Positions 2,490 through 19,789 of a stretch of DNA of 64,000 nt are shown piece after piece (position 1 is the first letter of the stretch; each line of letters opens with the position of its first letter). Source of the DNA: Rubrivivax sp. (GTDB taxonomy: Bacteria > Pseudomonadota > Gammaproteobacteria > Burkholderiales > Burkholderiaceae_C); contig JBBAPI010000006.1 of assembly GCA_040400915.1 (NCBI GenBank), positions 704-64,703 of the forward strand, in the 5' to 3' direction. The position numbers were made by a program, and so were the translations under genes. The notes beneath the pieces were generated by a model. It made no database searches. It was not told where the DNA came from and saw only the letters and a list, made by a program, of their open reading frames with translations.

Positions 2490-2722
2490 GGCGCAAGAGC
2501 AAGAATGGGTTTTGCATCGACGTGGGGACCGTGGCGTATCGGTTGGGTATTATGATCTGAGGTGATCTCACGCCGGTCGAGCCTGCACCGGCCACGGCGG
2601 AAGCATCGCGCTTGCTGGGGAGCCGCCCAGCCCAAGCCGTGGCGCTCCCCTTGCCCACCATCCACGTCGCGTCGGTCGACGGCGTTGCCCGCCGCTGGAC
2701 GATTCGACACGTCTGCCGGAAC

Positions 2723-3877
2723 ATGAAAGCTGCAATCCAAGTCCAGATCATCGACGGCATCGGTGCCCACTCGGGCATGCAGGCTTACAACTCGGCACTG
2801 GCCCGCGCGCTGGAAGCGGGCGGCCTGCGTGCCTCGATCTACTCGAACTACCTGGATGACCGGTTTGCCAACCGCCTGGGGTGGATCTTGCCTAACTTCT
2901 ATGTCGGCAGCATCTGGGGCAACATCCGGCGGATGCTGGCTTGCGGCCGCGAAGTCTTCCGGTACGTCAAACGCGTTGATGACGAGGAAACCTGGTGGCT
3001 GCTGCATTTCCATGGCGCCACGCTCGGCAACTTGGTCTTTTTTCTGGCTTTGTCTCTGGCCACCAGGCGAAGACGGATTGGTCTCATCGTGCACGACGTG
3101 ACCTCGGTTCACCGTCGCGAGAACGCCTTCTTTCGCAGGATCAAGACCCTGTTTTACCGCCACGCGCCCCGCGTGGTGATCGTGCACTCCGAAATTGCCG
3201 GACAGCAGTTGCGGGCCATGGGCTACCGCCGAGCTCTGATGCAAACGGAGATCTTCCGCAGTTCGGATGCCGTCGTTCTGCCGGTGCATCCTATTCAGGA
3301 CGGTGAACTGAGCGCGGTCTTGCAGTCGACCCGTCGCCGCTTCCTGTTGTTCGGCTCGATACGGGAATCCAAGGGATTGGACACGGTCCTGGCGGCCCTG
3401 CGCCTGCTGCCGCCGGAGGCTCGAAACGCAACGATGGTGGTGGTTGCCGGGCGGGATTCCGGCGGTGTCATCGGAACGCCCGGACATGAGATACCGGACG
3501 ACGGCTCGGTCGTCTTGCTGAATCGCTTCATCTCGAACGAGGAGCGTGGCGCGCTCTTTGCCTCGACCGACATCGTCTTGCTGCCCTATCGAAGCATCTA
3601 CCAGAGTGGGGTTCTCGACGTGGCGGCGGCACACCGTGTGCCGGTGATCGCTTCGGACCTGCCCAGCTTTCGACACTTTTTCGCGGACTTTCCATCATTC
3701 GGCCGTGTCTATGGGCACGATGCCGGTCAACTGGCGCAAGCCATGATGGATGTGTTGGCATCAGATGCCAGTACCCGTCCGGTCTACACCGAAAGTGACG
3801 TCGCTCGTTACGAGGCCAGTGACCCGGTCTTGTCCTTCGGCGAAGAACTTCGTACCGTGATGCAATCGGCAGGCTGA
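2723..3877 (+). CDS. Glycosyltransferase family 4 (GT-B)
   Basis: Motifs LIVHDV, FLLFGSIRESKGLD and LLPYRSIYQSGVLDVAAAHRVPVIASDLP. Start taken at ATG 2723 (MKAAIQ). Confidence 0.85.
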   Translation: MKAAIQVQIIDGIGAHSGMQAYNSALARALEAGGLRASIYSNYLDDRFANRLGWILPNFYVGSIWGNIRRMLACGREVFRYVKRVDDEETWWLLHFHGATLGNLVFFLALSLATRRRRIGLIVHDVTSVHRRENAFFRRIKTLFYRHAPRVVIVHSEIAGQQLRAMGYRRALMQTEIFRSSDAVVLPVHPIQDGELSAVLQSTRRRFLLFGSIRESKGLDTVLAALRLLPPEARNATMVVVAGRDSGGVIGTPGHEIPDDGSVVLLNRFISNEERGALFASTDIVLLPYRSIYQSGVLDVAAAHRVPVIASDLPSFRHFFADFPSFGRVYGHDAGQLAQAMMDVLASDASTRPVYTESDVARYEASDPVLSFGEELRTVMQSAG

Positions 3878-3900
3878 GCAGCCGGATCCAGCTGTTCAGC

Positions 3901-4995
3901 TCAACGCTGGCAAGCGGCCGACAGGATGGCGTCGTAACGGTCCCAAATCGTCTGCCAGCGGTACTCGGCCCGTGCGATGTCGCCCATGCGTTGCCCCAGT
4001 GCTGCCAAGGCACCAACATCAGTCTTGCCGAGGACAGCGATCAAGGTGTCGGCGCTGTCGAAGTACAGGGCTTGGCCTTGCGTGGTCTCGCGGTTGGTGG
4101 CCACGTCGAAGCAGACGGTGGGCAGCCCCAGATACATGGCCTCGACCAAGGATGGCGCAGTGCCACATCGTGAGTGCGTGTGCACATAGACGGCCGCATT
4201 GGCACGCAGATAGTCCAACTCGCGCGGGTCGTAGATCGCTGGCAGCAGGCGCACGTTGGGCAGGGCCGAGCGCTCTTCGAACAGAGCGCGCCCGTAGGCG
4301 GAGACGTTCCAGTTCGAGACCACCACGAGTTGCCGTTCCGGCATGCGTTCGTACGCTTCAATCAGCAGATGGATGTTGTTGTCCGGCTGCGCCCTTGCCA
4401 CCGCAAGATGGTAGGGCTTGCCGACGAACGCGTACTTGGCGTCGAGGTCGGGCTGGCGGCCGGACTGGGGCTGCACATGGTCACCGCCATAGCGCACCAC
4501 TTCGGCGTCGGCGCCGAAATTGCGCATCAGACTGTCGCGAAGCAGGGTGTTGTCGGCGATATTGGTTGTCGACCAGCGTGACGCGAAGCGCGACGACCAG
4601 AACAGCACCTGGCGCTGGAACCAAGGGAACTTCTCGCGCGTCCATTCGTCGAGGCCGCCGTGGTTGACGACCAGGCCACGCCGCGCCAGCACATTGGCCG
4701 GCAGCGCGAAGCCCACGCCCGGGCCGAGCATGAGCAGCACGTCGGCCGTCATCATGGCGTGCCAGGTGGTCAGCAGGTCGTAGGGCAAAGACTGCCAGCC
4801 ATTGGCGCGCAAGGGCACATGGAGCAGGCGCGCACCGAGGTATTCGTCTTTCCGCTGCTCGGGCGGCACGCCCGAACAGTAGACCGTGATGTCCCAGCGG
4901 CCCGCCAACCCGCGCACCAAGTTTTCAGCCAGTGTCTCGAAGCCGCCGTAGCGAGCGGGGATCCCGTTCGTGCCGACGATCGCCAGCCGCTTCAT
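3901..4995 (-). CDS. GT4 glycosyltransferase with DUF1972 N-terminus (WchF/RgpA-like, probable 6-deoxyhexosyltransferase)
   Basis: N-terminus MKRLAIVGTNGIPARYGGFET, plus ARAQPDNN and GTAPSLVEAM. Start ATG 4995 overlaps the upstream stop. Confidence 0.88.
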   Translation of the reverse strand: MKRLAIVGTNGIPARYGGFETLAENLVRGLAGRWDITVYCSGVPPEQRKDEYLGARLLHVPLRANGWQSLPYDLLTTWHAMMTADVLLMLGPGVGFALPANVLARRGLVVNHGGLDEWTREKFPWFQRQVLFWSSRFASRWSTTNIADNTLLRDSLMRNFGADAEVVRYGGDHVQPQSGRQPDLDAKYAFVGKPYHLAVARAQPDNNIHLLIEAYERMPERQLVVVSNWNVSAYGRALFEERSALPNVRLLPAIYDPRELDYLRANAAVYVHTHSRCGTAPSLVEAMYLGLPTVCFDVATNRETTQGQALYFDSADTLIAVLGKTDVGALAALGQRMGDIARAEYRWQTIWDRYDAILSAACQR

Positions 4996-5891
4996 CCCAG
5001 ATAGCCGGCGTAGTAGTCGCGCAGATACTGAGCCAGGGCGACACGCCAGTCTTGCATCAGGTTCAGCTCGCGGAGGTCGAGCTTGGTGTTGAGAAGACGT
5101 TCGCAATCGGGGCGCGGGGCGAAGTATTCCTTCGCGAAGTGGCTGCTTTCCACGGCGTGCAGCGCCACGCGGTCTTGCAGTCCCAACTGCTTCAGCAACT
5201 CCCCTGCGACCTCGAAGCGGCTGGTCTGTCCGCCGCACACCATGTTGTACAGACCCCAATACTGCTTCTCGATCAGCGCCTTCACATTGCGTGCGAAGTC
5301 GTGGGTGTAGGTGGGTGTGCCGTCCTTGTCGTTGACCACGTAGAGGTCGGTCGCGCCGCCCTTGAGCTGCGCCATCAGCTTCTGGATGAACTTCTTGTCC
5401 TTGCGCGGACCCGAGCCCATCATCCAGCCAGCGCGACAAACGAGGTAGCGGCGCGCGTTCTCGACCACGAAGCGCTCGCCCATGTATTTCGACCGTGCGT
5501 ACACGCCCAGTGGGTTGGGCTGCGCCCAGTCGTCGTAGGAAGACTGGGCGCCGTCGAAGATGCCGGCAGTGCTGATGTACAGCAGCGGGATGTCCAGTTC
5601 GTTGGCGATGTAGACCGCGTTCTCGACGGCCAGCGTATTCGTGCGGTAGGCGTCCTCGACGTTGCTCTCGCAGTACTCCAGGCTGGTGTGCGCGCCCAGG
5701 TGGAACAGGTAGTCGGGCGCGAAGGCGCGCACGTCAGCGAGATAGGCCGCGTGGTCACGGAAGTCCAGCAACTGCAGCCACGGCTCGTTGAGGTCGATGT
5801 CTGTGCAGCGCAGTTCGTGATCGGTGCCGAACTGGACGTGAAAGGCTTCGCCCAGCATGCCGCCGCTGCCGGCGATGTAAATCTTCTTCAT
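4992..5891 (-). CDS. RmlD-like NDP-4-keto-6-deoxyhexose reductase (SDR)
   Basis: Rossmann motif IAGSGGMLG, then HLGAHT, YISTAGIFDG, catalytic YARSK and GTPTY. Confidence 0.85.
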   Translation of the reverse strand: MKKIYIAGSGGMLGEAFHVQFGTDHELRCTDIDLNEPWLQLLDFRDHAAYLADVRAFAPDYLFHLGAHTSLEYCESNVEDAYRTNTLAVENAVYIANELDIPLLYISTAGIFDGAQSSYDDWAQPNPLGVYARSKYMGERFVVENARRYLVCRAGWMMGSGPRKDKKFIQKLMAQLKGGATDLYVVNDKDGTPTYTHDFARNVKALIEKQYWGLYNMVCGGQTSRFEVAGELLKQLGLQDRVALHAVESSHFAKEYFAPRPDCERLLNTKLDLRELNLMQDWRVALAQYLRDYYAGYLG

Positions 5892-5926
5892 GATCGATAC
5901 TCGAATAAGAGGTAGATGGATGACGG

Positions 5927-6868
5927 TCAGACGTTCTCGGTACGCCCCGTCAGCACGTCGATGACAGGCAGCCCGCGGATGATTTCAAGGCGGGCAGGGC
6001 CGCCGATGAGCGTGGGCCGGCCATCCGCGTCGCGGCTTTCACGCACCTTGGATGGTGTGTATCCCGCCGTGCGTGCAAGTGGCGCAATCTCGTCATTGAC
6101 GCAATCATTCCGCACGAAGAATGCATTGACGCCCGAAGTGGTCGTGCCCACGAATGTGTAGCCAAGTCGTTCAGCCAAATGACGGAACGCGGCCAGCGAA
6201 GCGCCGAAATACAGATTGGAGTGGTGGGCCGCGGTGCGAAAGAAATCGGCCCGGTACGGCACCGTGATCGCACGATCGGCGCCGAAAATCGCGTTGTACT
6301 CGACGATGAGGATGCGCGGCTTGAAGCCCGTGATGGCCTCCAGAACGTGGTAGTCCACGCCGTCGATGTCGACCGAAAGAACGCCCAGATCCTGGTCGAA
6401 CCCGCTGCGCGCCAACAACTCGTTGATGTTTTCGCGCGTGATGAAGGCCTGCGTGCTGCCCAGGTCGTAGCGCCAGTTGTCGTATGCTGCACGAAGGCGG
6501 CCGATGGCCACCGGCGAGCCATCGATCACGAATCCTGACCAGTAATCCTTGACCATCAGGAAACGGCAATTCGCCTGAGTGAAGTCTTCGACACCGAACT
6601 CGATGAAGGTACGGTTCGGGATCTCGATGGCCCGCGTGAGCTTTTGCAGGATGCCATCCTCGCCCCACTGAGAGAAGACGCGGAACTCGTAGTCCTGCAA
6701 ATTGGCAGAAATGCGATTGCGCTGGATTTCGGCCAGCGTGTGGCCTTGCAAGGCCTTGGCCTCGTCGAAGTGCTGGCCTATGTTGACGAGCGTGTGGAAC
6801 GAGGTGCGCAGTCGCGTCGAGATCTTCTCCAGGCGCGTCGGTCCTCTTGGGGCGATCGGAACATTCAC
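5927..6868 (-). CDS. Conserved hypothetical protein, FkbM-like SAM-methyltransferase fold
   Basis: Motifs FSQWGEDGI, FIEFGVED and LSVDIDGVDYHV resemble FkbM/Methyltransf_21-type proteins. GTG start at 6868 is uncertain (alternative GTG 6985). Confidence 0.6.
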   Translation of the reverse strand: MNVPIAPRGPTRLEKISTRLRTSFHTLVNIGQHFDEAKALQGHTLAEIQRNRISANLQDYEFRVFSQWGEDGILQKLTRAIEIPNRTFIEFGVEDFTQANCRFLMVKDYWSGFVIDGSPVAIGRLRAAYDNWRYDLGSTQAFITRENINELLARSGFDQDLGVLSVDIDGVDYHVLEAITGFKPRILIVEYNAIFGADRAITVPYRADFFRTAAHHSNLYFGASLAAFRHLAERLGYTFVGTTTSGVNAFFVRNDCVNDEIAPLARTAGYTPSKVRESRDADGRPTLIGGPARLEIIRGLPVIDVLTGRTENV

Positions 6869-7033
6869 GGGGTGGTGTGGGCAATGCCGTTGTTGTTGAC
6901 GGGCGCCGTGGGTGTGGCGCGGCGTTTGAGCCAACCCCGAACGGGGCGGCGGTCTTCGAAAGCGACTGGCTTGATTATCAGCCACTTGGTAGGTCTCGCC
7001 AGAACCCGGTCCACGGACGCGAAGTCTGCTGCG

Positions 7034-8368
7034 TCAGCGATGCGATTCATGGTGGGCAAGCAGCATGGCTACCAGCAGCAGGACGAATTCAGGAAACATC
7101 ACAAACGATCCGGTGACAATGGAGGAGATAGCCAGGTAGGCCAGGTAGGTCTCGCAGGTATCGCTGGTCGTACTGGAGCGTGCGCGCGTGATTCGCCGCG
7201 CATACCGCCACCCGAAGATGAACTGCACCGCGAAGGCAGCGGTACCGATCAGTCCGAACTGCACGGCCATGCCCACGATGCCGATGTCGTCCGGAAAGAA
7301 GTACGTGTCGAGCAAGCCGGCGTAGCCCTCTTCCACCCATTGACTGCTGATCCTGCCGTTGCCCATCCAGGGGTGCTCTTCGATCATCGGCAGCGCCACA
7401 AGGATCTGCAGGGCACGGCTTGCGGCGGACGCGTCGCCGATGAGATCGGCATCCAGCGAGACCACCGCAAAGGCGTCAGCGAACTTGTCGAGGCGCTCCG
7501 ATGTCGCTTCTGGGGCGATGACGGCTGCAACGCCGAACACCGCACCGAGCAACAGCGCAAGCCCGGCGGCACCACGCCACACGCGTGCCCACCCGCCCCA
7601 ATGCAACAACACGACCAGAACGGCGAGGATCACGGATACGGCGAGCGTCCGGCCGCCTGCCGAGCCGAACAGAAACAGAGCGAAAGGGGCAGATGCCAAA
7701 TACCACTGAGGACGTGATTCGCGCAGAGCGCGCACCGCGTAGTGGAACATCGCGTACAGCGTGAAAACGGCGTTGAACTTGAACCGGAAGCCTTCGGTGT
7801 GTCGGTCCTCGATGAAGCCTGGGCCATAGTCGATGTAGTTGACTGGATCCAGCGTCACTGTCATCAGGACGAAGAGCATCAACGTGATCCAGGCACAGGC
7901 GACGAAGGCTCGATCGACGTCGCCGGTGGTGATCAGGCGGGCTCGAACTGCATACAGCACGATCAGCGCGAAGGACGACAACCAATAGCCGCGCGAGGCC
8001 AGGATGCCGAAGACCAACGGTTGTCCATGTGCCCATAACGCCGCCAGGCCTGACCAAGCTGCCATCGCAATGGTCAGGAACAGCAGGTACAGCTCGAACC
8101 CGGGCGTTCGTCCCACCACCTTGGGGTGGCGGCGCATCAAGACAGCCAAAGCAACAGGAGCGGCGACGATCGCCGCTTCCTGCACGAGACCCATAGCCGG
8201 GAAGTACTGGAAGGTACGCGCCACCATCAACAGCCCAATGCTGAGCGCGACGACTGGCCACGGACCGGTCAGCCTTCTGCGCGAAACGGGCCTTTTGACC
8301 GAGCGCGGAACTTCCATGGCTGAAACGGGTAACCGCACGAGGCCGCTTCCGTTGTCATCCCCGTTCAT
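7034..8368 (-). CDS. wzy: Wzy polymerase / O-antigen ligase family membrane protein
   Basis: 444 aa with about 10 hydrophobic segments and a late loop (EEHPWMGNG...DDIGIVGMAVQFGLIG); lies in an operon with wzx and wzz. Confidence 0.7.
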   Translation of the reverse strand: MNGDDNGSGLVRLPVSAMEVPRSVKRPVSRRRLTGPWPVVALSIGLLMVARTFQYFPAMGLVQEAAIVAAPVALAVLMRRHPKVVGRTPGFELYLLFLTIAMAAWSGLAALWAHGQPLVFGILASRGYWLSSFALIVLYAVRARLITTGDVDRAFVACAWITLMLFVLMTVTLDPVNYIDYGPGFIEDRHTEGFRFKFNAVFTLYAMFHYAVRALRESRPQWYLASAPFALFLFGSAGGRTLAVSVILAVLVVLLHWGGWARVWRGAAGLALLLGAVFGVAAVIAPEATSERLDKFADAFAVVSLDADLIGDASAASRALQILVALPMIEEHPWMGNGRISSQWVEEGYAGLLDTYFFPDDIGIVGMAVQFGLIGTAAFAVQFIFGWRYARRITRARSSTTSDTCETYLAYLAISSIVTGSFVMFPEFVLLLVAMLLAHHESHR

Positions 8369-9489
8369 CGCAGCGATCCCTCAGGTTTGGCGGCCAGCCA
8401 ACCAACCTTTACAAGGGCTTTGATGATTCTCCCAGGGGGTGCATTCCCGTGAGAAATTCCGATTTCTGCAAGAACGCCGCGCCAGTCGAACTCCGGAGAC
8501 CGGCGGTTCCAGTCGTACGCGTCGATCTGGGCCTGATGGCGTGCCACCCAGTCGAGTACAGCTGCGCGCTGGCCTTGAACGCACAGTTGGCTGACGATGC
8601 TTTTTCGAAACTCGAAGCTGCGCTTCACCGACTGCGCCATCGTCGACAGCTTCAAACTCTCATTGTGTGAGAAGCGATAGCGCGCAAGCCGCTGGTCCGT
8701 GATGGTGATGCCATAGTGCAGGCAGTAGCGCGCGCTGAAAACGTAGTCGGCGATCGGCCAGAACTTGCTGTTGTAGCCGCCCAACGCGAGTGCAGCGTCG
8801 CGGTGCATCACCACCCCGAGGGATGCATGCACGGGGTTGCCGGCGAGCAGATCTGCAAGCTTGACGCGGTACTCCCCCCCGCGGCCGGCGATCCTGTCGC
8901 CCAAGGCCTTCAGCGCAGCATCAAGCCGGCTTCGGTGGTGCAGCCACGGCTGGTCACCAAAGAGCTCGACGCGACAGGCCCGCATCTCCTGCCCAGACCG
9001 CCGCCCGGCCACGGTGTCCAGCCAGTCGGGCTTCAGCAGATCATCGTCGTTGAGGATGCTGAGCCAGGGGGCGCGCGCCAACTCGATGCAGCGGTTCCAG
9101 TTGCCGAACATCCCGATGTTTTCGCGATTCCGATAGAGGCGCAGGCATGGTGATCGGAAACTGCTCACGACTGCATCGACAGCGCGCGCCCCTTCGAGAT
9201 CCGTATCGTTGTCAACCACGATGACTTCAAGGGCGCAGTCCGAACGTTGCGCAAGCGCAGAGGCGACGGCTTCGCGCAGTATGTCTGGGCGGCGAAACGT
9301 CGGGATGGCGATCGTCAATTCGGGCTGCGCCAGCGACGAGCCGGCTATGACCAAGTCCGATGGTATTTGGCGGTAGGCGGCGTAACAGTCTTCGGGATCG
9401 AAATAGCCGCCACCGATACCCTGCGCAGTCGCAGTCGCTGCCGCACCATCGATCGGCTGGCCATAGACCATGAGTCTTGGAGAGCTCAT
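8365..9489 (-). CDS. Glycosyltransferase family 2
   Basis: Motifs LTIAIPTFRRP, VIVVDND, NIGMFGNWNRCIE and LNDDD. Start ATG 9489 forms an ATGA overlap with the wzx stop. Confidence 0.85.
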   Translation of the reverse strand: MSSPRLMVYGQPIDGAAATATAQGIGGGYFDPEDCYAAYRQIPSDLVIAGSSLAQPELTIAIPTFRRPDILREAVASALAQRSDCALEVIVVDNDTDLEGARAVDAVVSSFRSPCLRLYRNRENIGMFGNWNRCIELARAPWLSILNDDDLLKPDWLDTVAGRRSGQEMRACRVELFGDQPWLHHRSRLDAALKALGDRIAGRGGEYRVKLADLLAGNPVHASLGVVMHRDAALALGGYNSKFWPIADYVFSARYCLHYGITITDQRLARYRFSHNESLKLSTMAQSVKRSFEFRKSIVSQLCVQGQRAAVLDWVARHQAQIDAYDWNRRSPEFDWRGVLAEIGISHGNAPPGRIIKALVKVGWLAAKPEGSLR

Positions 9490-10889
9490 CGTGGGACGAA
9501 AAGGTGCCGCAGTTCGCTGCACCCGATACGGAGCAGTTCGCCGACAGAAGTGTCGAGCTCTCTGAGCGCATCGCGCGGCCACTTCCAGTTGTTGTAAGCC
9601 AACTGAACCAGACCTTGAGCGATGACAACCCCCCAGATGCCAGAAGCTGTCCATGCACACAGCGCGTATCCCAGGCAGGCGATGGCCAAGCCCGAAACAA
9701 TAGCGGCGCCGGCAAACGGAACCTTGTTGAGCGTCGTCAGGTAGTGAGCAGCGATGGAGTGGTTCATCTCCAGGAATGCGATCGTAACCATGGCCAGCAG
9801 GACCGGCGTGTCGAGCAAGTGCACTTGCCGGCCCAAATGCGCCAGCAATTCGTGCCCGAAAGAGGCCAGCAAGAAAGCGCCGAAGGCAAAGATGATCCAG
9901 GAGGAGACGACAGATAGCCCGACCGCCTGCTTCAGCAGCGCCCTGTCGCCGCGCGCCTGCGCCGCGTTCATGCGCGGCAGTTGCAGGATCACCAGCAACG
10001 ACGCCACGCCGGAAATCAGCAGCAACAGTTGAAGCGTCAGGCCATATGACCCCGCGATTTTGAGCCCGAGGTACGAGGAGACCACCAAGGTATTCGCGCG
10101 AATGATCAGGAAGCCGCCCAGCTGCACAACGAACAGTCGCCAGGCGTTGGGCCACAGGGTCCGCATCACTTCGACCGTCGTGGGCCGGACGTCCGTCGGC
10201 GCGGTTGACGGCGGAACAAGACCCTTGAAGTAGTGATGGGCAAGCCATCGGCCGACAACGCACGAAACCAGAGAGGCGATGCCGAGCGCCATCAGTTGCT
10301 GCTCGAAGATCAGTCCCAGTGCAGCAAGCAGAACGAAGCTGCCCCGCGTCAGCACCGTGATTCTGCTGTTCTGCCCGACATTCCCGTGCCCGAGGATGAA
10401 GGCGCTGTAATAGCCGTAGAAGACGTTGATGGTTATTCCACTCGCGTAAACCACCCAAGCGAGAACGGCAGTTCCTGCGCCAGCCTCACTCTTGGACACC
10501 AGCGTGGCGACATAGGCGCTGCCGCCGAGCACCAGGCAGACCGCAACCAGTGCAGTGATGACCTTGTAGCTGGCCCGACCTCCTGCGATCAGCGCCGTCA
10601 GTAGGCCGACGCTGACCGACGAGTTGGGACGCGGGGCCTGCAGCCCGATGCCGCTCAGGCTGTCCGCGCCAGCGAAGACATATGCAGCGGTGCGCGATAG
10701 CGTCGGCTGCAGGGCCAGTTCGAACAACTGGGCCATGGCGACCAGCGTCAGGAAGACGAACCAGAGGCCAACCTGCTCAGGGGAAAGTGTCAGCAGCACC
10801 ACCGGTAACAGCAACACGCCGCTGCCGATGTTGACCAGCTGAGCTGCATAACCCCAGGCGATGTCGGCATGTCTGAGTGGCTGCGTCAT
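9486..10889 (-). CDS. wzx: Wzx O-unit flippase
   Basis: 467 aa, about 12 TM segments, N-terminus WGYAAQLVNIGSGVLLLP...GLWFVF; follows the sugar-pathway genes. Confidence 0.85.
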   Translation of the reverse strand: MTQPLRHADIAWGYAAQLVNIGSGVLLLPVVLLTLSPEQVGLWFVFLTLVAMAQLFELALQPTLSRTAAYVFAGADSLSGIGLQAPRPNSSVSVGLLTALIAGGRASYKVITALVAVCLVLGGSAYVATLVSKSEAGAGTAVLAWVVYASGITINVFYGYYSAFILGHGNVGQNSRITVLTRGSFVLLAALGLIFEQQLMALGIASLVSCVVGRWLAHHYFKGLVPPSTAPTDVRPTTVEVMRTLWPNAWRLFVVQLGGFLIIRANTLVVSSYLGLKIAGSYGLTLQLLLLISGVASLLVILQLPRMNAAQARGDRALLKQAVGLSVVSSWIIFAFGAFLLASFGHELLAHLGRQVHLLDTPVLLAMVTIAFLEMNHSIAAHYLTTLNKVPFAGAAIVSGLAIACLGYALCAWTASGIWGVVIAQGLVQLAYNNWKWPRDALRELDTSVGELLRIGCSELRHLFVPR

Positions 10890-11734
10890 TGCGGCTCGAC
10901 GGCGTCGAGCGCCGGCACGAGGCGCATGATCTCATTCGAACGGTAAGGCACAGCGCCGGCCATCAACTGGCCTTTCGCATCCCAACGTCGCCACCAGCTC
11001 TCGGCGAATTCCAGCAGGGTCTGCGGATGGCCGCTTGCAACATGGCGTACGCGAGGTTGACCTGGCGCTATGTCTCGGAAGTCGAGGGCCTCGGCGATCT
11101 GACGGGCCACTTCCCGAACATCGATGAAATCCCGTATCTGTTCCCCGGCACTCATCTTGAAGTCCCGACCCGAGAGCGCCGCTTCCCGCAGCGAGGGCCA
11201 GAACCTGGAGGCCTGCTCGCCCTCGCCATAAACCTGAAAGATGCGCAGCACTTCCAACACCAACCCCTGCTCTCTCGCCATCCCCATGAAGGCGATGGTT
11301 GCGGCTGCCTTGGAGGTCGGATACGAAAGTGAGGGCTCGAGAGGTGCGTTGGTGGGAATCCGTGCGAAGGTCTCGGCAGCTCGACCGTACTCGAAGCAGG
11401 AGCCCGCAACGAGAAATCGGTTGACGCCGGACGCGACAGCTTGTCGTGCCATCCGGGTTGCTGCATACACATTCCAGTACAGGCAACTCTCCAGCGTGTC
11501 ATACGGCGGGTTCGGTGTGTGCGACGCCAAGTGCACGACCGCGTCGACGCCGACGAAAGCCGACCCCAGATCGCTATCGATGGCCTGTTCGATCCAGGCG
11601 GGTTCTCGATCCAAGGGAATTCGCGGCCTGCTGCCAGGGCGCCGCAGGGCCACGACTTCGTGGCCGGCACCGTGACACTGGTTGATAACGTGCGATCCGA
11701 CAAAACCCGTTCCCCCGGTCACGAAGACTTTCAT
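10886..11734 (-). CDS. NAD-dependent SDR, probable CDP-4-keto-3,6-dideoxyhexose 4-reductase (AscF/RfbJ-like)
   Basis: MKVFVTGGTGFVG, AGSCFEYG, YPTSK and FQVYGEGE; last gene of the ddh block. Confidence 0.8.
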   Translation of the reverse strand: MKVFVTGGTGFVGSHVINQCHGAGHEVVALRRPGSRPRIPLDREPAWIEQAIDSDLGSAFVGVDAVVHLASHTPNPPYDTLESCLYWNVYAATRMARQAVASGVNRFLVAGSCFEYGRAAETFARIPTNAPLEPSLSYPTSKAAATIAFMGMAREQGLVLEVLRIFQVYGEGEQASRFWPSLREAALSGRDFKMSAGEQIRDFIDVREVARQIAEALDFRDIAPGQPRVRHVASGHPQTLLEFAESWWRRWDAKGQLMAGAVPYRSNEIMRLVPALDAVEPQ

Positions 11735-11742
11735 GGGCTGTG

Positions 11743-12282
11743 TCAGAAAGGAGAAGCGAAGTCGGCGAGTGCCGGATGCAGGGCGTCGCGTGCGGACAGC
11801 AGTGGCTGGGCGCACCCCCAGTCGAATCCGAAGCTGGCCCAATGCACGCCCGCATCGTGTTGAGGCGCGTGTTCGGAACTGGTCTTATAGACCATCAGCG
11901 TGTGGTCCTCCAGCGCCCGGAAGCCGTGCGCCACGCCGCGTGGCACCACAACGAGTGCGGGCTCGGCTGCATCCAGGTGCACGGCAGCTACACGGCCATA
12001 ACCTGGGCCGCGACGCAGATCCAGCAACACATCGTGGGCCGAGCCATTGGCGCAATACACCAGCTTGACGTGATCGTGCGGGGGCAACTGGAAATGCATG
12101 CCGCGCACCACGTCCCGGTGCGAGTACGAGTAGAACTCCTCGCGCAAGTCGAACGCCGGGACGCCCGGTATGGCTTCGAAGACGCTCTGCGCATAGGTTT
12201 TCACGAAGCTGCCGCGCGCATCGTCCAGGCGCTTCAGGCGCACAAGCCAGACGCCCGGCAGCAATTCATCGGTGAACTGCAT
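11743..12282 (-). CDS. RmlC-fold sugar epimerase, probable CDP-4-keto-3,6-dideoxyglucose 5-epimerase (AscE-like)
   Basis: Cupin motifs RGSFVKT, REEFYS, RGMHFQ, KLVYC and VAHGF; directly after rfbH. Confidence 0.82.
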   Translation of the reverse strand: MQFTDELLPGVWLVRLKRLDDARGSFVKTYAQSVFEAIPGVPAFDLREEFYSYSHRDVVRGMHFQLPPHDHVKLVYCANGSAHDVLLDLRRGPGYGRVAAVHLDAAEPALVVVPRGVAHGFRALEDHTLMVYKTSSEHAPQHDAGVHWASFGFDWGCAQPLLSARDALHPALADFASPF

Positions 12283-13631
12283 CAGAAGCCTATTCCCAGG
12301 AAGGTCTCGAGCTTTTCGACGATGTAATCCAGATGGGCCTCGGTCAGCGCAGGGAAGACACCAATCCAGAAAGTCTGGTTCATCACGATGTCCGTGTTCG
12401 TGAGTTCGCCGCTGATGCGGAAATTGCGACCGATCATGTACGGCTGGCGCACCAAGTTCCCCGCGAACAAAAGACGAGTCCCGATCTTGGACTGGTCAAG
12501 ATAGTTCAGCAGATCGACACGCCGTACGCCGCTTTCGGGTTTGAGCACCAAGGGGAAACCGAACCATGAGGGTTCGGAATTCGGCGTGGCCTCTGGCAGG
12601 TGCAAGAACTCTTTGCACGATTGCAAACGTTCCTTCAGGTATGCAAAGTTGTGGCGCCTGATTCGGATGAAATCATCCACGCGATCCATTTGTGCCAGTG
12701 CACAGGCCGCCTGCATGTCGGATATCTTCAGGTTGTAGCCGAGATGCGAATAGGTGTACTTGTGGTCGTAGCCCTCGGGCAGGTTGCCCAGCTTCCAGCA
12801 AAAGCGTTTGTTGCAGGTATTGTCCTTGCCGGGTGGGCAATAGCAGTCACGGCCCCAATCACGGAACGATTCGGCGATCAGCTTGAGTTCGGGGTTGTTC
12901 GTGAAGACAGCACCACCCTCGCCCATGGTGATGTGGTGCGCCGGATAGAAGCTCAGCGTACCGATGTCCCCGAACGTTCCGACCATCTGGCCGTTGTAGC
13001 GCGCACCCATGGCGTCGCAGCAATCCTCTATCAGCCACAGACCGTATTTCTTGCAGAGCGCCGTGACGACGTCCAGGTTGAAAGGGTTGCCCAGCGAATG
13101 CGCCAGCATGATGGCCCGCGTCTTGGGCGAGATGGCTGCTTCGATCAGGGAAGCGTCGATGTTGTGGGTTGCCAGATCGACGTCTACAAAGACCGGTACC
13201 GCGCCGAATTGCAGGATGGGATTGACCGTGGTCGGGAACCCTGCTGCAACACCGATGACCTCGTCTCCCGGTTTGATGGCGCGGTCACCCAGTCGAGGCG
13301 AAGTCAAGGTCGAAAAGGCCACCAGGTTGGCCGACGAACCCGAGTTGACAGTGATGAGATGTTTGACACCAAGAAACGCTGCCAATCTCGATTCGAACTC
13401 AGCATTGAATCGGCCGGTGGTGAGCCAGCCATCCAGCGAAGCCTCGACCATCAACTGCAATTCCTTGGTTCCGATGACCTTGCCGGACACAGGAACCACC
13501 GATTCGCCGGGCACGAAGGGTTGGGGTGCAAGCGTCAGCTCTGCATAGCGCCGCACCAGCTCTGCAATTTCGTTGCGCAATGCAGCGGCAGGGGGGGCCA
13601 CGTTGGCTGTTGTGGCGAAAACGGTACTCAT
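12282..13631 (-). CDS. rfbH: CDP-4-keto-6-deoxy-D-glucose 3-dehydrase E1 (DdhC/AscC/RfbH)
   Basis: [22 protein letters not shown] (His where aminotransferases have Lys), Fe-S Cys motif [13 protein letters not shown] and YDHKY. Confidence 0.95.
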
Positions 13632-14704
13632 TGAGGGTCCTTGTTGATCATGCAATGCGAATATTGGGCAATCTGCTCAAGGCACAGGGCGCGAACATCG
13701 TCGCCGGCCAACCAGGCGCGGTGCCAACGCACGATCTCGTGCAATGCCGTGTCGAGCGACCAGCGCGGCTGCCAGCCCAGACGGCTCGCGGCCTTGGAAA
13801 TGTCGAGCTTGAGGAAGTTGGCTTCGTGCGGCTGCGGCGCATCGTCGAGTTTCCAGCTGGCGCCCGCACCCCAGGCGTTGACCAGACGTTCGACGATCCA
13901 GTGCACGGGCCGAGCATCTTCGTCACGCGGGCCGAAATTCCAGCCTTCGGCGCAGGCCTGGCCTTCGGTGAAGAGTCGCTGCGCAAGCAAGAGATAGCCC
14001 GAGAGCGGTTCCAGAACGTGCTGCCAGGGCCGCGTGGCGTGTGGATTGCGAATGAGCACGGACTGACCGGCGCCCATGCCACGCAGGATGTCGGGCACCA
14101 GACGGTCCGCGGCCCAGTCGCCGCCGCCGATGACATTGCCTGCCCGGGCCGACGCCAGTGCTGCCCCCTGTTGGAAGAACGACTGGCGATAGGCCGCCGT
14201 CACGAGTTCCGAGCAACCCTTGCTGCTGCTGTACGGGTCGCGACCGCCCATCGGCTCGCTTTCACGGTAGCCCCAGACCCACTCCCTGTTTTCGTAGCAC
14301 TTGTCGGTGGTGACGTTGACGATCGCCCGCACAGTGCCTGCCCGGCGGGCTGCTTCGAGCACATGCACCGTCCCCATCACATTCGTGGCGTAGGTTTCCA
14401 CAGGCTCGGCGTACGAATACCGCACCAGCGGTTGAGCGGCCATGTGGATGACGATGTCAGGGCCGAAAGCCACCAGGCTGCTGCATACGGCCTCGAATTC
14501 GCGAATGTCGCCCAGTGTGGACACCATGCCTTCGGCGACCCGTGCTTGGGTAAAAAGCGCAGGCGTGGTCGGCGGTGACAAGGCGTAACCCTGCACTGAC
14601 GCGCCCAGCGATTGCAACCAAAGCGCGAGCCAACTGCCCTTGAAGCCGGTGTGGCCGGTCAGGAAAACGCGTTTGCCGCGCCAGAAATCGGCCTCGACGA
14701 CCAT
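13628..14704 (-). CDS. rfbG: CDP-glucose 4,6-dehydratase (DdhB)
   Basis: [43 protein letters not shown] and [13 protein letters not shown]. Confidence 0.95.
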
Positions 14705-14706
14705 GT

Positions 14707-15480
14707 TCAATCCCAATGCTTCCAGGGAGCCTTGCCGCTGGCCCACAGATCCTCAAGGTGGACCTTGTCGCGCAGCGTGTCCATCGGCTGCCAGAAACCG
14801 TTGTGTTCATAGGCCATCAATTCGCCCTGCGCCGCCAGGCCGACCAAGGGGGCTTGTTCCCAGATGCATGCGTCGCTGTCGATCAAGGTCAGCACCTTGG
14901 GTGAAAGCACGAAGAAACCGCCATTGATGCGACCACCGTCGCCGCGAGGCTTTTCCGTGAAGCTGCGCACCTGACTCTCGGCGATATCCAGCGCGCCGAA
15001 GCGGCCGGGTGGCAATGTGGCCGTCAGCGTGGCCTGCTTGCCGTGCTGGTGATGGAAGGCCAGCGTGGCCGCGATATCCAAATCGCTGACGCCGTCGCCA
15101 TAGGTGAAGAAGAAGGCCTCCTCGTCCTGCACATACTGCCGCACTCGGCCCAGCCGCCCGCCCGTCATCGACTGCTCGCCCGTGTCGACCAAGGTCACTT
15201 TCCAAGGCTCCGCGCGCTTGTGATGGACATCCATGCGGTTGGCCCGCATGTCGAAAGTCACGTCGGACGTGTGCAAGAAGTAGTTGGCAAAGTACTCCTT
15301 GATCATGTAGCCCTTGTACCCGCAGCAGATCACGAAGTCATTGCAGCCGTGGGCTGAATACATCTTCATGATGTGCCACAGGATCGGCTTGCCGCCGATT
15401 TCGACCATGGGCTTGGGCCGGCTCAGCGTTTCTTCGCTGAGCCTTGTGCCCAGGCCACCGGCAAGGATCACGGCTTTCAT
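14707..15480 (-). CDS. rfbF: Glucose-1-phosphate cytidylyltransferase (DdhA)
   Basis: [38 protein letters not shown] and [11 protein letters not shown]. Confidence 0.95.
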
Positions 15481-15511
15481 CGGCACGGTACTTTCTTCAG
15501 GAATATGAATG

Positions 15512-16501
15512 TCAAGATGAACTCACGAAAGCGTCTGAGAAGAATCGCCCTTTGGGTAACCCGGCAGTTTGCAGGACGACACGGGCTGACTGGATCATGG
15601 CATCGGAGCCGCAAGCGTAAACCACGGCCCGTTCGATGTCGGGTGCTGTTCGCATGAGCGCGTCTTGCACGTGGCCGCGTTCGCCAACCCACTCCCCGCC
15701 CGCTCGGGACAGAACGGGCGTGTGGTTCAGCCCAGGCAGGGCGCGGCCGGGGCTCCAGTAAAGATCGGCCTCCAAACGCCCCCCCCAAAACAATGCGACC
15801 GAGCGAGGTGCGCGCTCGGGTCCGTACGTTGCCAATTCGGCCAACATCGATTTGACTGGCGCAATGCCGGTACCGGTCGCCAGAAACACCAGGTCGAGAC
15901 CAGCCACGTTGCGCAGGAAGAAGGTGCCGAGCGGTCCACGCAGTCTCAGCAGGTCGTTGGGTTTCGCGCTGCCGAACCAGTAGTCACTCATCAGGCCGCC
16001 GGGCACTTGGCGGATTTGTATTTCCAGCTTTTCCGGCGCAGCCGAATCGCTGGCTACGGAATAACTGCGGGACACCCCTCCATGGCCGACGACGTCGATG
16101 TATTGGCCAGCACGGAATTTGAATCCTGATCCGGGCGGCAACCGCAGCGTCACGATCATGACGTCGGGGGCCGGTCTAGACAGGCCGTCGATGCGGCAAG
16201 GCAGCGTCTTGACGCTGATGCCGGCCAGACCGCTGAGGTCCTCGATGTCCAAACTCAGATCGGATGTGGCTTCGCGCGCGCAAGTGAGGATCATCCCGCC
16301 GGCGATCTCGTCTTCTCGCAGAGAGACCTCGGGCCGCAGTGGACGGGATTGGCCCGCAGTCACCTGGGCTTTGCAACTGCCGCACCGCCCAGTGCGGCAG
16401 CTGTGTTCGATGGCGAGAGAAGCCCGTTCTGCCGCTTCCAGGATCGAGGCACCCACCTCCGCTTGGAAGGTCTTGCCGTTCGATAGGGTCACGATACTCA
16501 T
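15512..16501 (-). CDS. rfbI: CDP-6-deoxy-delta3,4-glucoseen reductase E3 (DdhD/AscD): 2Fe-2S ferredoxin plus FAD/NAD reductase
   Basis: CRTGRCGSC...LTC ferredoxin motif, [15 protein letters not shown] and YACGS; first gene of the ddh block. Confidence 0.85.
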
Positions 16502-16623
16502 CGCAGTCTTCGGGTGTACTGAGGAAAAAGCAGCGTAGGTCCAGACTCTCCGAAAGCCTCTGCGCCGACGGACATGAAGTGCCGCATTCCCGGCTGACCA
16601 ACCTCATCCTGCACCACGGGCCT

Positions 16624-17781
16624 TCAGTCGATGGCCGTCTGGATGGCCGGCTTGTGCCGCTGCCCTCGCGTCACGACCCAGATCAGCAGCAGCACGAAGG
16701 CACCGGCCGTCACACCGAGGGCGGTCAGGGCCCGCTTGGGCCGGCTCTTCTTTTCGGGCGGCGTTGCGGGGTCGATCACCTGTATCAGTGCGCCTTCACG
16801 GGTTTCATCCAATCGCGCCAATTCGTATTGGCGCGAAAACAATTCGAACAAAGTTTCCTGATACTTGAATTCGCGGTATTTGCCGACGTAGTTCGGGCCT
16901 GCTCCCGTGTCGGGTGTCGCATCTTCTACCTTTGCCAACTCGCCCCGCAGCGCACCCAGAGTGGCCATTTGTTGCTGGACTTCGGGCGCGCTGTCGGTGA
17001 GGTTGCGACGCAGGGTCTGAACCTTCACCTCGGCGGCGGTGGCCTCGGCTTTGAGCTTGGCGTAGCCCTCGGCCGCGGCCTTCGGCTCGGCTTTCAATGC
17101 CCCTGTGCTGAAGCCGCTGTCCTGCAATGCCTGTTGTGCGCGAGCCAACTGATCGCGCGTCTGTTTCAGTTGAGCCTCGAAGAACACGCGCCGTTGCTGC
17201 GATTCGGACAGCGCCAGTCTTGCGGTCATGCGACGCAATTCATCGACATGCCGATTGGCCATGTCTGCGGCGCGCTGGGGGCTGACGTCGTCGACCTCGA
17301 TGGTGATCAGCCCGTCCTTCTTGCCAGCGCCGATGCGCACGTTCTTCGCCAACTCCTTGCGCGCTTCCACCCGGTACTTTTCGTCGTAGACCTTCAGCAG
17401 GTCGAACTGATCCACGATGCGGTCTGCCACCGTCGTGCTTTGCATCAGCGCCACGTACTGGTCGGCAGGACTCTTGATGCCAGCCGCTGCACCGGCCAGG
17501 CTCGACAGCGCACCCAGCGACGACAAGGCTGTTGCTGCAAGGCTCTGCTGCTGCTGAGGCGGCAGGAAGACCGTGCGTGCCGTGAAGGTGGGTGGGATCA
17601 GGTACGTGGCCGCCAGGCCCACAAGCCCGGCCAGCAAGGACCCTAAGACCAGCAGGATCCATCGCTCTCGCATGGGCCCCAGAACCTCGAGTGCTGCTCG
17701 CGCAGGTTCCTGGTCCGCCAAATCATCGCTCGGATGGGTCGCGGCATCCACCCTCGAGTCCGACGCATCGACCCTCGTCAT
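16624..17781 (-). CDS. wzz: Wzz-type chain-length determinant (polysaccharide co-polymerase)
   Basis: Two TM segments flank a coiled-coil region; C-terminal IQVIDPATPPEKKSRPKR; no tyrosine-kinase domain. Confidence 0.85.
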   Translation of the reverse strand: MTRVDASDSRVDAATHPSDDLADQEPARAALEVLGPMRERWILLVLGSLLAGLVGLAATYLIPPTFTARTVFLPPQQQQSLAATALSSLGALSSLAGAAAGIKSPADQYVALMQSTTVADRIVDQFDLLKVYDEKYRVEARKELAKNVRIGAGKKDGLITIEVDDVSPQRAADMANRHVDELRRMTARLALSESQQRRVFFEAQLKQTRDQLARAQQALQDSGFSTGALKAEPKAAAEGYAKLKAEATAAEVKVQTLRRNLTDSAPEVQQQMATLGALRGELAKVEDATPDTGAGPNYVGKYREFKYQETLFELFSRQYELARLDETREGALIQVIDPATPPEKKSRPKRALTALGVTAGAFVLLLIWVVTRGQRHKPAIQTAID

Positions 17782-17887
17782 GGGCAGCCCGCCGAAACAT
17801 CATCCCGTGGATGGAGGTCGGTTCGGATCGCTGCCAAACACGGCCTCATCGAGCCACTCGCATTTGCCTGCGCAGTCATGACCCGCA

Positions 17888-19738
17888 TCATCGGATGGCC
17901 GCTGTGGACTTGATGCCTGCGGCGCCCAGGCCCAACTGGTACAGGATCAGAGTCCAATCTCTGGCCGTCTGAAGTGCTGTCGACTTGTCCATTTCCTCGG
18001 GCACGAATACGCTGTCTCCGGGCAGTGCTGACATGGCCAGGGTGGACGCATCCCTGGAGAACCAGCCCGTGTTGTTCTGGCGGTTGCTGACAACCTGACC
18101 ATTGGCTCGAACAACGAACAGGCTGGCCTCGTCGGCGCCTTTGGTCGGTCCCCCGGCCAATCGAACGTAGTCGCTCAACGGCCGTGAACCCTGGTAGAGG
18201 TAACTGCCCGCGTTGAAGACGCTGCCGAAGACCCCGACGGCTGAGGGTTTGGGCGGAACGAAGACCTTGTCGCCGTCCTCCAGCAGCAGTTCCGGCAAAT
18301 CGCGCGCTTCGGGTGCGACTTGCAACACCACACGACCGGACGGCTGCAGGGCGCGCAGCCGGTCGACCAGGCGCGCGTTCGTCGCTGCCCGGGTCTGGGC
18401 GTTCAGCGCATCCTCCTGCGAGGTGACGCGTTGAGATGCACTGCTCTTGATCAGATCCGTCTCGAGGTCGCGCAGAGCCCGTTCGTAGTTTTCCTGCTGG
18501 GAAGCGCGCACGCTCACGCGCGTGAAGTTCGTGCCGAAGACGAACGCCGTCGTCGACAAGCCGCCGGCAGCCCGTATCGCATCGGCCAGGGTGCTTTCAG
18601 GCGGCAGCAGATACTCGCCCGGAACGGCGATCTCACCCTCGACACGGATGCGCTTGTTCTGGCGTTGCACGGACAGCGAAGAGTCGACCGCGCTGAAGAC
18701 GCGCACGACATCACCACTTTGCAAGGTCATGTTCTCGCTGGCCGGCAGCTTCAATTGCACGACACGCTGGTCGTTGCGGTTCTCCAGGCGCTCCAGCGAA
18801 AAGCGCGTTCGGTCAGCGACCTCCGTGAAGCCTCCGGCCATGCGCAGGACATCCTTGAGGACTTCGCCCTGCTTCAGCTCGAAAATGGCCTGTCGGTTGA
18901 CGCTGCCGCGCAGCGCGACTTGCGTACCGACGGGCAACACGTGGATCACATCGTCAGGTTCAACCAGCCGGTCGGACGTGCGGTCGCCGCGTTGCAACAG
19001 GTCGTAGAGGTCGAAGCTGGCAACCGTCTTGCCTTGACGCCGCAATTCGATTTGGCGGAAGCTGCCGGCGGCGGACGGGCCGCCTGCACGCATCGCAGCA
19101 CTCATGACCGTGGAAAGCCCTGCGACGGCGTAGGCACCGGGCCGCTGCACGAAGCCGGTGACGTACACCCGCACACCGCGTAACTTGCCCAGCGAGGCGC
19201 TGAGCTCGAAATTCTTGAACACCTGGGCCACCCGCCGGGTCAGCGTTTCGCGCAGGTCAGCGAAGCGCACGCCGGCCACCAAGGTTGGACCCACGCGAGG
19301 AATCGTCACCCGCCCGGCGCGGTCGACGGTCAGGCGCATGTCCGCATCCACCGAGCCCCACAGCGACACCTGTATCTCGTCGCCAGGCTGTATCACGTAT
19401 TCCGGCGGCACCAGCGGGCTGAAGTCGGCAGCGCCCGCAGCGAGTTCGTTGACCAGGTCCGAGCCGTAGCGCTGCAGACCGACGAAAGTTTCAAATTCAC
19501 CGGGCTTGGCCGCAGTTTGAACCGGCGCTGCGATGGTCGTGACGACGGGTTCTGCCAGCGGCTGGCGCAGCCGTACGGGCCCCCCAGTGGTGGTTGCGGC
19601 GTCTGCCGTACCGCTTGCCGACGAATTCGTCGACTGGGCCAGGGAAGCCAGAGTCGTCACGCACAGCGCGGCCGCGATGCAAAGGCGGCTGACGCTCGAT
19701 CGGCGGCCTGACAGGCGTGGCAGGGAAAACAGATGCAT
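17888..19738 (-). CDS. Multi-SLBB polysaccharide export protein (Wza/KpsD/OtnA-like)
   Basis: Signal-like N-terminus, EYVIQPGDEIQV...WG poly-export motif, repeated SLBB motifs (VYVTGFVQRPG, VEGEIAVPGEY, GVFGSVFNAG). Start ATG 19738 is uncertain. Confidence 0.85.
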   Translation of the reverse strand: MHLFSLPRLSGRRSSVSRLCIAAALCVTTLASLAQSTNSSASGTADAATTTGGPVRLRQPLAEPVVTTIAAPVQTAAKPGEFETFVGLQRYGSDLVNELAAGAADFSPLVPPEYVIQPGDEIQVSLWGSVDADMRLTVDRAGRVTIPRVGPTLVAGVRFADLRETLTRRVAQVFKNFELSASLGKLRGVRVYVTGFVQRPGAYAVAGLSTVMSAAMRAGGPSAAGSFRQIELRRQGKTVASFDLYDLLQRGDRTSDRLVEPDDVIHVLPVGTQVALRGSVNRQAIFELKQGEVLKDVLRMAGGFTEVADRTRFSLERLENRNDQRVVQLKLPASENMTLQSGDVVRVFSAVDSSLSVQRQNKRIRVEGEIAVPGEYLLPPESTLADAIRAAGGLSTTAFVFGTNFTRVSVRASQQENYERALRDLETDLIKSSASQRVTSQEDALNAQTRAATNARLVDRLRALQPSGRVVLQVAPEARDLPELLLEDGDKVFVPPKPSAVGVFGSVFNAGSYLYQGSRPLSDYVRLAGGPTKGADEASLFVVRANGQVVSNRQNNTGWFSRDASTLAMSALPGDSVFVPEEMDKSTALQTARDWTLILYQLGLGAAGIKSTAAIR

Positions 19739-19789
19739 CGGAAGATATGGCTCGTGGCCCTGAAGCGCGTGAGCAAACAAAAGACCACC

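Follow-up and report, generated by a model that had tools for sequence, protein, structure and literature searches.

The window analysed here, a stretch of 64,000 nucleotides from a Rubrivivax sp. genome (positions 704 to 64,703 of contig JBBAPI010000006.1, assembly GCA_040400915.1), carries a gene module very likely to encode a functional CDP-3,6-dideoxyhexose pathway. Its product probably belongs to the L series and is predicted, with a probability that we put at about 0.6, to be CDP-ascarylose (3,6-dideoxy-L-arabino-hexose). Analysis of the list of open reading frames (ORFs) and family scans reveals nine genes in one direction on the minus strand: ddhD, ddhA, ddhB, ddhC, an epimerase gene, a gene for a short-chain dehydrogenase/reductase (SDR), wzx, a family 2 glycosyltransferase (GT2) gene and wzy (Table 1). 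Judged by this content, the region forms the nucleotide-sugar core within a surface-polysaccharide locus of the Wzx/Wzy-dependent type. An L-series product is suggested because the complete core is followed by an epimerase that has the RmlC fold without being RmlC, and then by an SDR of the size of a reductase. The first eight genes lie, co-oriented and tightly packed, exactly where an initial annotation made from the DNA letters had placed them, and the asc-type order that it had recognized is the one known from Yersinia and Salmonella, i.e. ddhDABC, sugar-specific genes, wzx and a glycosyltransferase (PMC5399914, PMC3715488). There are ATGA overlaps at the ddhB/ddhC, reductase/wzx, wzx/GT2 and GT2/wzy junctions and a TGATG overlap at the ddhC/epimerase junction; these five overlaps span 1-4 bases, the other junctions leave gaps of 2, 8 and 25 nt, and the pattern indicates putative translational coupling. 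The ORF at 8365-10458 in the raw list is a high-GC artefact, and the start of the GT2 gene is at 9489.

The core enzymes could be assigned with little ambiguity. DdhA, DdhB and DdhC all exceed the cut-offs of their equivalog models (469 bits vs. 300 for TIGR02623, 504 vs. 278 for TIGR02622, and 749 vs. 423 for NF011936 RfbH, respectively), and the first two are 75% and 63% identical to their Yersinia counterparts. NCBIfam has no curated equivalog model for E3, and the assignment of DdhD, encoded by the first gene of the block, rests on its Pfam domains, which form a ferredoxin/FNR architecture, and on its 39% identity to Yersinia DdhD over 324 aa, i.e. the full length (E = 5e-75); its translation contains a C-X4-C-X2-C motif. 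DdhC aligns end to end with E1 of Y. pseudotuberculosis (PDB 3BCX, E = 1e-213). In the motif HHITMGEGG (His232/233) the lysine that binds pyridoxal 5'-phosphate is replaced by His, His232 corresponding to Yersinia His220, and Cys205, Cys263, Cys265 and Cys273 (C-X57-C-X-C-X7-C) match Yersinia C193, C251, C253 and C261. Thus, the diagnostic His and the Fe-S cysteines of E1, as well as the complete core for CDP-4-keto-3,6-dideoxyglucose, are present as initially claimed. By strong homology, DdhA would produce CDP-glucose, DdhB would convert it to CDP-4-keto-6-deoxy-D-glucose, and E1 (DdhC, with pyridoxamine 5'-phosphate and a [2Fe-2S] cluster) together with E3 (DdhD) would strip the 3-OH to yield CDP-4-keto-3,6-dideoxy-D-glucose, the known product of DdhABCD (PMC5399914). 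Among L008-L032 and other loci with E1, most of those outside Pseudomonadota lack an adjacent E3 gene while the iron-sulfur cysteines of E1 are intact; in the window the E3 gene is present.

The epimerase belongs to PF00908 (153 bits), and its sole NCBIfam match, TIGR01221, scores 121.9 bits, under the cut-off of 155.75. Its best match in the PDB is WbcA (5BUV, 1.4e-38), with RmlC structures following from 4e-25; WbcA, a CDP-sugar epimerase, is its nearest solved relative (PMC9095892), and identity to proteins of the WbcA/AltA type is ~42%. In order to place it among its relatives, we calculated a maximum likelihood tree of 90 sequences, among them four dTDP-RmlCs: S. enterica 1DZR, the genome's own copy, and those of two loci that we use repeatedly below, one from Piscinibacter koreensis (L116; GCA_013366375.1) and one an enterobacterial asc-like O-antigen locus (L117; JGI sample 3300066819) with the arrangement rmlBDAC-ddhDABC-epimerase-SDR-wzx-GT2-...-DUF1972 GT-gnd. 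The four dTDP-RmlCs group together (100/100 support), and a branch of ~1.6 changes per site sets them off from every CDP-linked epimerase, so that the grouping with dTDP-RmlC, named in the initial annotation as the result that would refute its reading, is not seen. The window epimerase groups with those of the loci L001 and L002 and of P. koreensis (99/88), all three of which have ddhD-A-B-C directly upstream. The Rubrivivax genome has a canonical rmlB-rmlD-rmlA-rmlC operon on another contig (C34, 7387-10813), whose RmlC shares just 31% identity with the window epimerase. We therefore rejected the identification of the epimerase with the cell's RmlC, on account of the sub-threshold TIGR01221 score, the presence of rmlC elsewhere in the genome and the separation in the tree. 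Canonical rmlC and a CDP-type epimerase gene occur together in the P. koreensis and the enterobacterial loci, and since they coexist there, the two are not redundant.

The catalytic residues His63, Lys73, Tyr132 and Asp166 are intact in the window epimerase and in all 80 environmental homologues, i.e. those from the best 80 genome loci with epimerase homologues (L001-L080). A change from Tyr to Cys is found only in the Yersinia WbcA/AltA lineage (L081, L084 and PDB 5BUV), whereas the E1-linked copy of L117 keeps Tyr. Hence an RmlC-fold epimerase with an apparently competent active site stands directly downstream of ddhC. Four motifs noted initially (REEFYS, HVKLVYC, YKTSSEH and WASFGFDW) are indeed all present, but their description as AscE-like did not hold: they occur also in WbcA, AltA and homologues from E1-free loci with only ddhA and ddhB, and mark the whole clade of CDP-sugar epimerases. 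We therefore discarded them as AscE-specific characters.

Genomic neighborhood analysis links the epimerase to E1. Among the best 80 loci, 24 have a true E1 (with the His and the cysteines) beside the epimerase, and 36 have ddhA and ddhB only. In a sample of 400 Burkholderiales genomes, drawn evenly at the species level, E1 is encoded in 47 (~12%) and the CDP-type epimerase in 12 (~3%); E1 is present in 11 of the 12 epimerase-bearing genomes, mostly adjacent, as compared to 36 of the 388 without the epimerase (Fisher p = 2e-10). The phyla with E1-linked copies of the epimerase include Pseudomonadota, Verrucomicrobiota, Acidobacteriota, Planctomycetota, Bacillota, Bacteroidota and others. A database search at E <= 1e-10 gave 2340 relatives of the epimerase, and the best 120 clusters all share at least 61% identity with it. 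Freshwater and soil metagenomes are rich in close homologues; the window-type reductase has a similar spread, with over 120 clusters that are at least 60% identical. The initial description of the sugar as rare was not borne out by these figures, i.e. more than 120 metagenome clusters at 61% identity or above, several phyla and ~3% of the sampled Burkholderiales species. In two metagenome-assembled genomes of Chthoniobacteraceae (L006 and L007) the epimerase is paired with a window-type reductase (56-57% identical), and no ddh gene was detected within 8 kb on each side.

Downstream of the core, the epimerase of the CDP clade would invert C5 and the adjacent short SDR would reduce the 4-keto group with NADPH, two steps proposed from context and pathway logic. 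An enzyme of the RmlC type can change only C5 here, because C3 is a methylene in the 3-deoxy substrate and C5 is left as the sole stereocentre adjoining the 4-keto carbon. Reduction at C4 following inversion at C5 leads either to the L-arabino configuration (ascarylose, which is 3-deoxy-L-rhamnose) or to L-lyxo; colitose requires inversion at C2, and the 3,6-dideoxyhexoses of the D series require no epimerase. To our knowledge, ascarylose is the only natural 3,6-dideoxyhexose that can be reached from the 5-epimerised intermediate.

The SDR (282 aa) contains the motif TGGTGFVGS and the triad Ser112-Tyr138-Lys142. Two arginines that follow strand beta-2 (Arg31 and Arg32) are invariant in 37 homologues, with no acidic residue at this place, which suggests the use of NADPH, although this is a weak point, as Tyv also has Arg there. 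The SDR gene is syntenic with the epimerase gene in L001-L003, L008, L020, L025, L027 and L116, and in L003, L008, L020, L025, L027 and L116 the pair occurs with no RmlD-like gene nearby. The size typical of known CDP-sugar 4-reductases, the Ser-Tyr-Lys triad, the Arg-Arg pair and the synteny in loci without another reductase make this protein the expected 4-reductase of the predicted pathway. In the P. koreensis locus (2217-10402), rmlB-rmlA-rmlC is followed by ddhD-A-B-C, a CDP-type epimerase and a window-type SDR, and the stretch shown has no rmlD; a single SDR might act on dTDP-4-keto-L-rhamnose as well as on the corresponding CDP-3-deoxy sugar, or else rmlD might be located elsewhere in the genome. 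The epimerase and the SDR of this locus share 67% and 46% identity, respectively, with those of the window.

Several observations weigh against ascarylose as the product. The SDR is only ~24% identical to reductases of the AltB/WbcB type and ~22% to Prt, and has no characterised close relative. Its AlphaFold2 (AF2) model is of high confidence (predicted local distance difference test, pLDDT, of 93), but the Foldseek matches are generic extended SDRs with 20-25% identity, which do not discriminate between activities. The enterobacterial asc-like locus L117 has an AltB-type reductase (50% identical to AltB) instead of the window type. The locus encodes a second, RmlD-like reductase. Finally, E1-linked and E1-free epimerases are interleaved in the tree; the sequence of the epimerase therefore does not fix its substrate, and the state of the 3-OH is not a deep character of any clade. 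Since the reductase is far from the characterised types and its fold matches are generic, the outcome at C4 is an assumption, and it is only from pathway logic that we infer the L-arabino configuration. Of the initial ascarylose prediction, the part that concerns the L series is thus upheld by the core, the non-RmlC epimerase and the gene order, while the stereochemistry at C4 is not established by a reductase so remote from known types.

We considered three other explanations of the gene content. In the first, which we regard as unlikely, the pathway is branched: the SDR would reduce the product of E1/E3 directly to paratose or abequose, while the epimerase, acting on CDP-4-keto-6-deoxy-D-glucose, and the RmlD-like reductase would supply a 6-deoxy-L-hexose to the DUF1972 glycosyltransferase. 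Such a use of the epimerase is consistent with the ddhA-ddhB-only context of WbcA, AltA and the 36 loci mentioned above, and the RmlD-like gene is coupled in the locus to a gene for a rhamnosyltransferase-like family 4 glycosyltransferase (GT4), a pair retained in L001 and L002. However, ddhC, the epimerase gene and the SDR gene stay together as a contiguous trio in loci that have no RmlD-like gene, none of the 36 ddhA/ddhB-only loci has a window-type SDR adjoining the epimerase, the SDR is ~22% identical to the Yersinia SDRs encoded directly after ddhC in loci of the Par/Abe/Tyv type, and the rmlBDAC operon of the genome can feed the DUF1972 transferase.

The second explanation, quite unlikely in our view, shares with the ascarylose pathway all steps up to the 5-epimerised intermediate, which the reductase would then attack from the opposite face, giving CDP-3,6-dideoxy-L-lyxo-hexose (3,6-dideoxy-L-talose). 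In its favour, at least three unrelated families of SDR reductases (window-type, AltB-type and RmlD-type) are encoded directly after E1-linked epimerases in L001-L080, which suggests repeated recruitment and possibly different outcomes at C4, and the window-type SDR is only ~24% identical to the AltB-type enzyme of L117; the dTDP pathway splits in the same manner, RmlD leading to rhamnose and Tll to 6-deoxy-L-talose. On the other hand, non-orthologous reductases often share their stereochemistry, nothing in the sequence speaks for the opposite face, and 3,6-dideoxy-L-lyxo-hexose is not known to occur in nature. That the window-type family as a whole reduces the opposite face of C4, so that the environmental bacteria with this module would display 3,6-dideoxy-L-lyxo-hexose as a sixth natural 3,6-dideoxyhexose, is improbable. 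The third explanation, that the RmlC-fold protein is a spare dTDP-4-dehydrorhamnose 3,5-epimerase serving the RmlD-like reductase and that the CDP pathway ends in the D series, is very improbable, as its membership in PF00908 and the sole NCBIfam match to TIGR01221 are outweighed by the score under the cut-off, the 100/100 separation from dTDP-RmlCs, the motifs of the WbcA clade, the rmlC already present in the genome and the strong association with E1 across the order.

Wzx scores 411 bits with NF041503 (cut-off 300) and is 28-31% identical, over the full length, to the Wzx proteins whose genes follow the Yersinia Alt module and the module in L117. The GT2 is 29% identical over ~298 aa to the GT2s encoded after wzx in L117 and in L081, which by its context (hemH-ddhD-ddhA-ddhB-epimerase-SDR-wzx) is the Yersinia L-altrose module, while its alignment with GT2s from Tyv/Par loci is limited to the N-terminal ~115 aa. 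In Yersinia, wzx is followed by the gene for the dideoxyhexose transferase (PMC5399914), and the position of the window GT2 fits this rule. Together these features lend moderate support to a predicted role of the GT2 as an L-sugar transferase. Wzy reaches 31.1 bits with PF04932 (Wzy_C), just short of the cut-off of 31.7, and shares 80% identity with the corresponding protein of L001. In the proposed scheme, the GT2 probably adds the sugar to the undecaprenyl-linked repeat unit, Wzx would flip the unit, Wzy would polymerise it, and the Wzz-type protein together with the outer-membrane polysaccharide export (OPX) protein would provide length control and export.

The module is embedded in a larger locus (Table 1). 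The RmlD-like gene overlaps the DUF1972 GT4 gene; this pair is conserved only in L001 and L002 and lies in the locus but outside the CDP module. No rmlA, rmlB or rmlC is adjacent to it, and because a full rmlBDAC operon is already present on C34, the extra RmlD-like reductase may make a different 6-deoxy-L-hexose, e.g. 6-deoxy-L-talose. The protein encoded between wzy and the RmlD-like gene is retained in L001 (88% identity), L002 (66%) and L004 (48%). Farther downstream, a second GT4 is encoded on the plus strand, and there are also genes for a GNAT protein and a polysaccharide deacetylase. The GC content of the locus (572-19780) is 62.1% vs. 68.7% in the genome, and among 24 species representatives of the same genus (G001-G024) the epimerase is found in none and E1 in one; the locus has probably been acquired horizontally and, by these signs, varies in a serotype-like manner, which is the usual pattern for loci of surface antigens.

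Table 1. Predicted genes of the dideoxyhexose module and its flanks, with positions in the window
Feature	Positions	Strand	Family or domain
DUF1972 GT4, overlaps the RmlD-like reductase	3901-5004	-	PF09314 + PF00534
RmlD-like reductase	4992-5891	-	PF04321, 174 bits
Protein without Pfam/NCBIfam match, between wzy and the RmlD-like gene, start codon uncertain	5927-6985	-	
Wzy/O-antigen-ligase-like polymerase, multi-pass membrane protein	7034-8368	-	PF04932 Wzy_C, sub-threshold
GT2 glycosyltransferase, candidate dideoxy-sugar transferase	8365-9489	-	PF00535
Wzx-like O-unit flippase	9486-10889	-	NF041503
Short extended SDR; predicted NADPH-dependent CDP-4-keto-3,6-dideoxy-L-hexose 4-reductase, AscF-like role	10886-11734	-	PF01370
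CDP-sugar epimerase, RmlC (cupin) fold; predicted CDP-4-keto-3,6-dideoxyhexose 5-epimerase, AscE-like role	11743-12282	-	PF00908
ddhC (E1), CDP-6-deoxy-L-threo-D-glycero-4-hexulose 3-dehydrase	12282-13631	-	NF011936 RfbH
ddhB, CDP-glucose 4,6-dehydratase	13628-14704	-	TIGR02622
ddhA, glucose-1-phosphate cytidylyltransferase	14707-15486	-	TIGR02623
ddhD (E3), CDP-6-deoxy-delta-3,4-glucoseen reductase, [2Fe-2S] flavoprotein	15512-16501	-	Fer2 + FAD_binding_6 + NAD_binding_1
Wzz-type chain-length determinant	16624-17781	-	PF02706
OPX protein, Poly_export + SLBB	17888-19780	-	PF02563, PF10531, PF22461
WecA/MraY-family initiating transferase, divergent	19873-20991	+	PF00953

In chemical terms, the 3,6-dideoxyhexoses have been regarded as rare sugars of Salmonella and Yersinia (PMC10689435, PMC3715488). 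We are confident that the module described here has been soundly annotated and is no rarity, and that for this window alone it does not amount to a discovery; the unusual point is that the module is common in genomes, whereas the sugar is seldom reported chemically. Should the product be confirmed, environmental bacteria would fairly commonly carry ascarylose, or a sugar closely related to it, as a surface determinant. This would have a bearing on phage receptors and on serotype-like variation, the module being found in none of the 24 same-genus species. More speculatively, it could also bear on interactions with nematodes, for which ascarylose is a signal scaffold.

With the dTDP-L-rhamnose pathway the module shares its logic, in which a 4-keto-6-deoxy sugar is processed first by a cupin epimerase and then by an SDR 4-reductase, but the nucleotide is CDP instead of dTDP, the epimerase stays under the RmlC cut-off, and the rmlBDAC operon is separate. 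WbcA and AltA belong to the same CDP-specific clade of RmlC-fold enzymes as the window epimerase and share with it the motifs EE(F/Y)YS, HxK(L/M)V(F/Y)C and WxSFGFxW as well as the conserved His, Lys and Asp; they differ in that their genes follow ddhB and that they have Cys in place of the catalytic Tyr. As no E1 is encoded in their loci, their substrate keeps the 3-OH. The locus L117 resembles the window in ddhDABC, the Tyr-type CDP epimerase (48% identical), the presence of an SDR, Wzx (31%), the GT2 (29%) and the DUF1972 GT4 (37%), and differs in its AltB-type reductase; a megablast search with this locus against complete E. coli genomes gave no match.

The closest parallel is the asc module of Y. 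pseudotuberculosis O:5a, reportedly described by Thorson et al. in 1994 and said to run ddhD-ddhA-ddhB-ddhC-ascE-ascF-wzx-GT (GenBank KJ504356). A homologue search seeded with WbcA recovered Yersinia proteins of the AltA and WbcA types and no O:5a protein, searches for exact matches to Yersinia DdhA, to two variants of DdhC and to two Wzx proteins led only to Tyv, Par/Abe and Alt modules, and a literature search for the family relationships of AscE/AscF or for ascarylose outside Yersinia returned reviews only. The Yersinia CDP-sugar reductases that were compared, AscF not being among them, are all distant from the SDR family of the window. Moreover, the host of the window is a GC-rich betaproteobacterium, and the locus starts with the OPX and Wzz genes and has no hemH/gsk flanks. 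The resemblance to the O:5a module is one of gene order and of the core enzymes: the epimerase and the reductase are encoded right after ddhC, the same order continues to wzx and then the GT2, and the core enzymes are 39-75% identical to DdhD/A/B/C of Yersinia.

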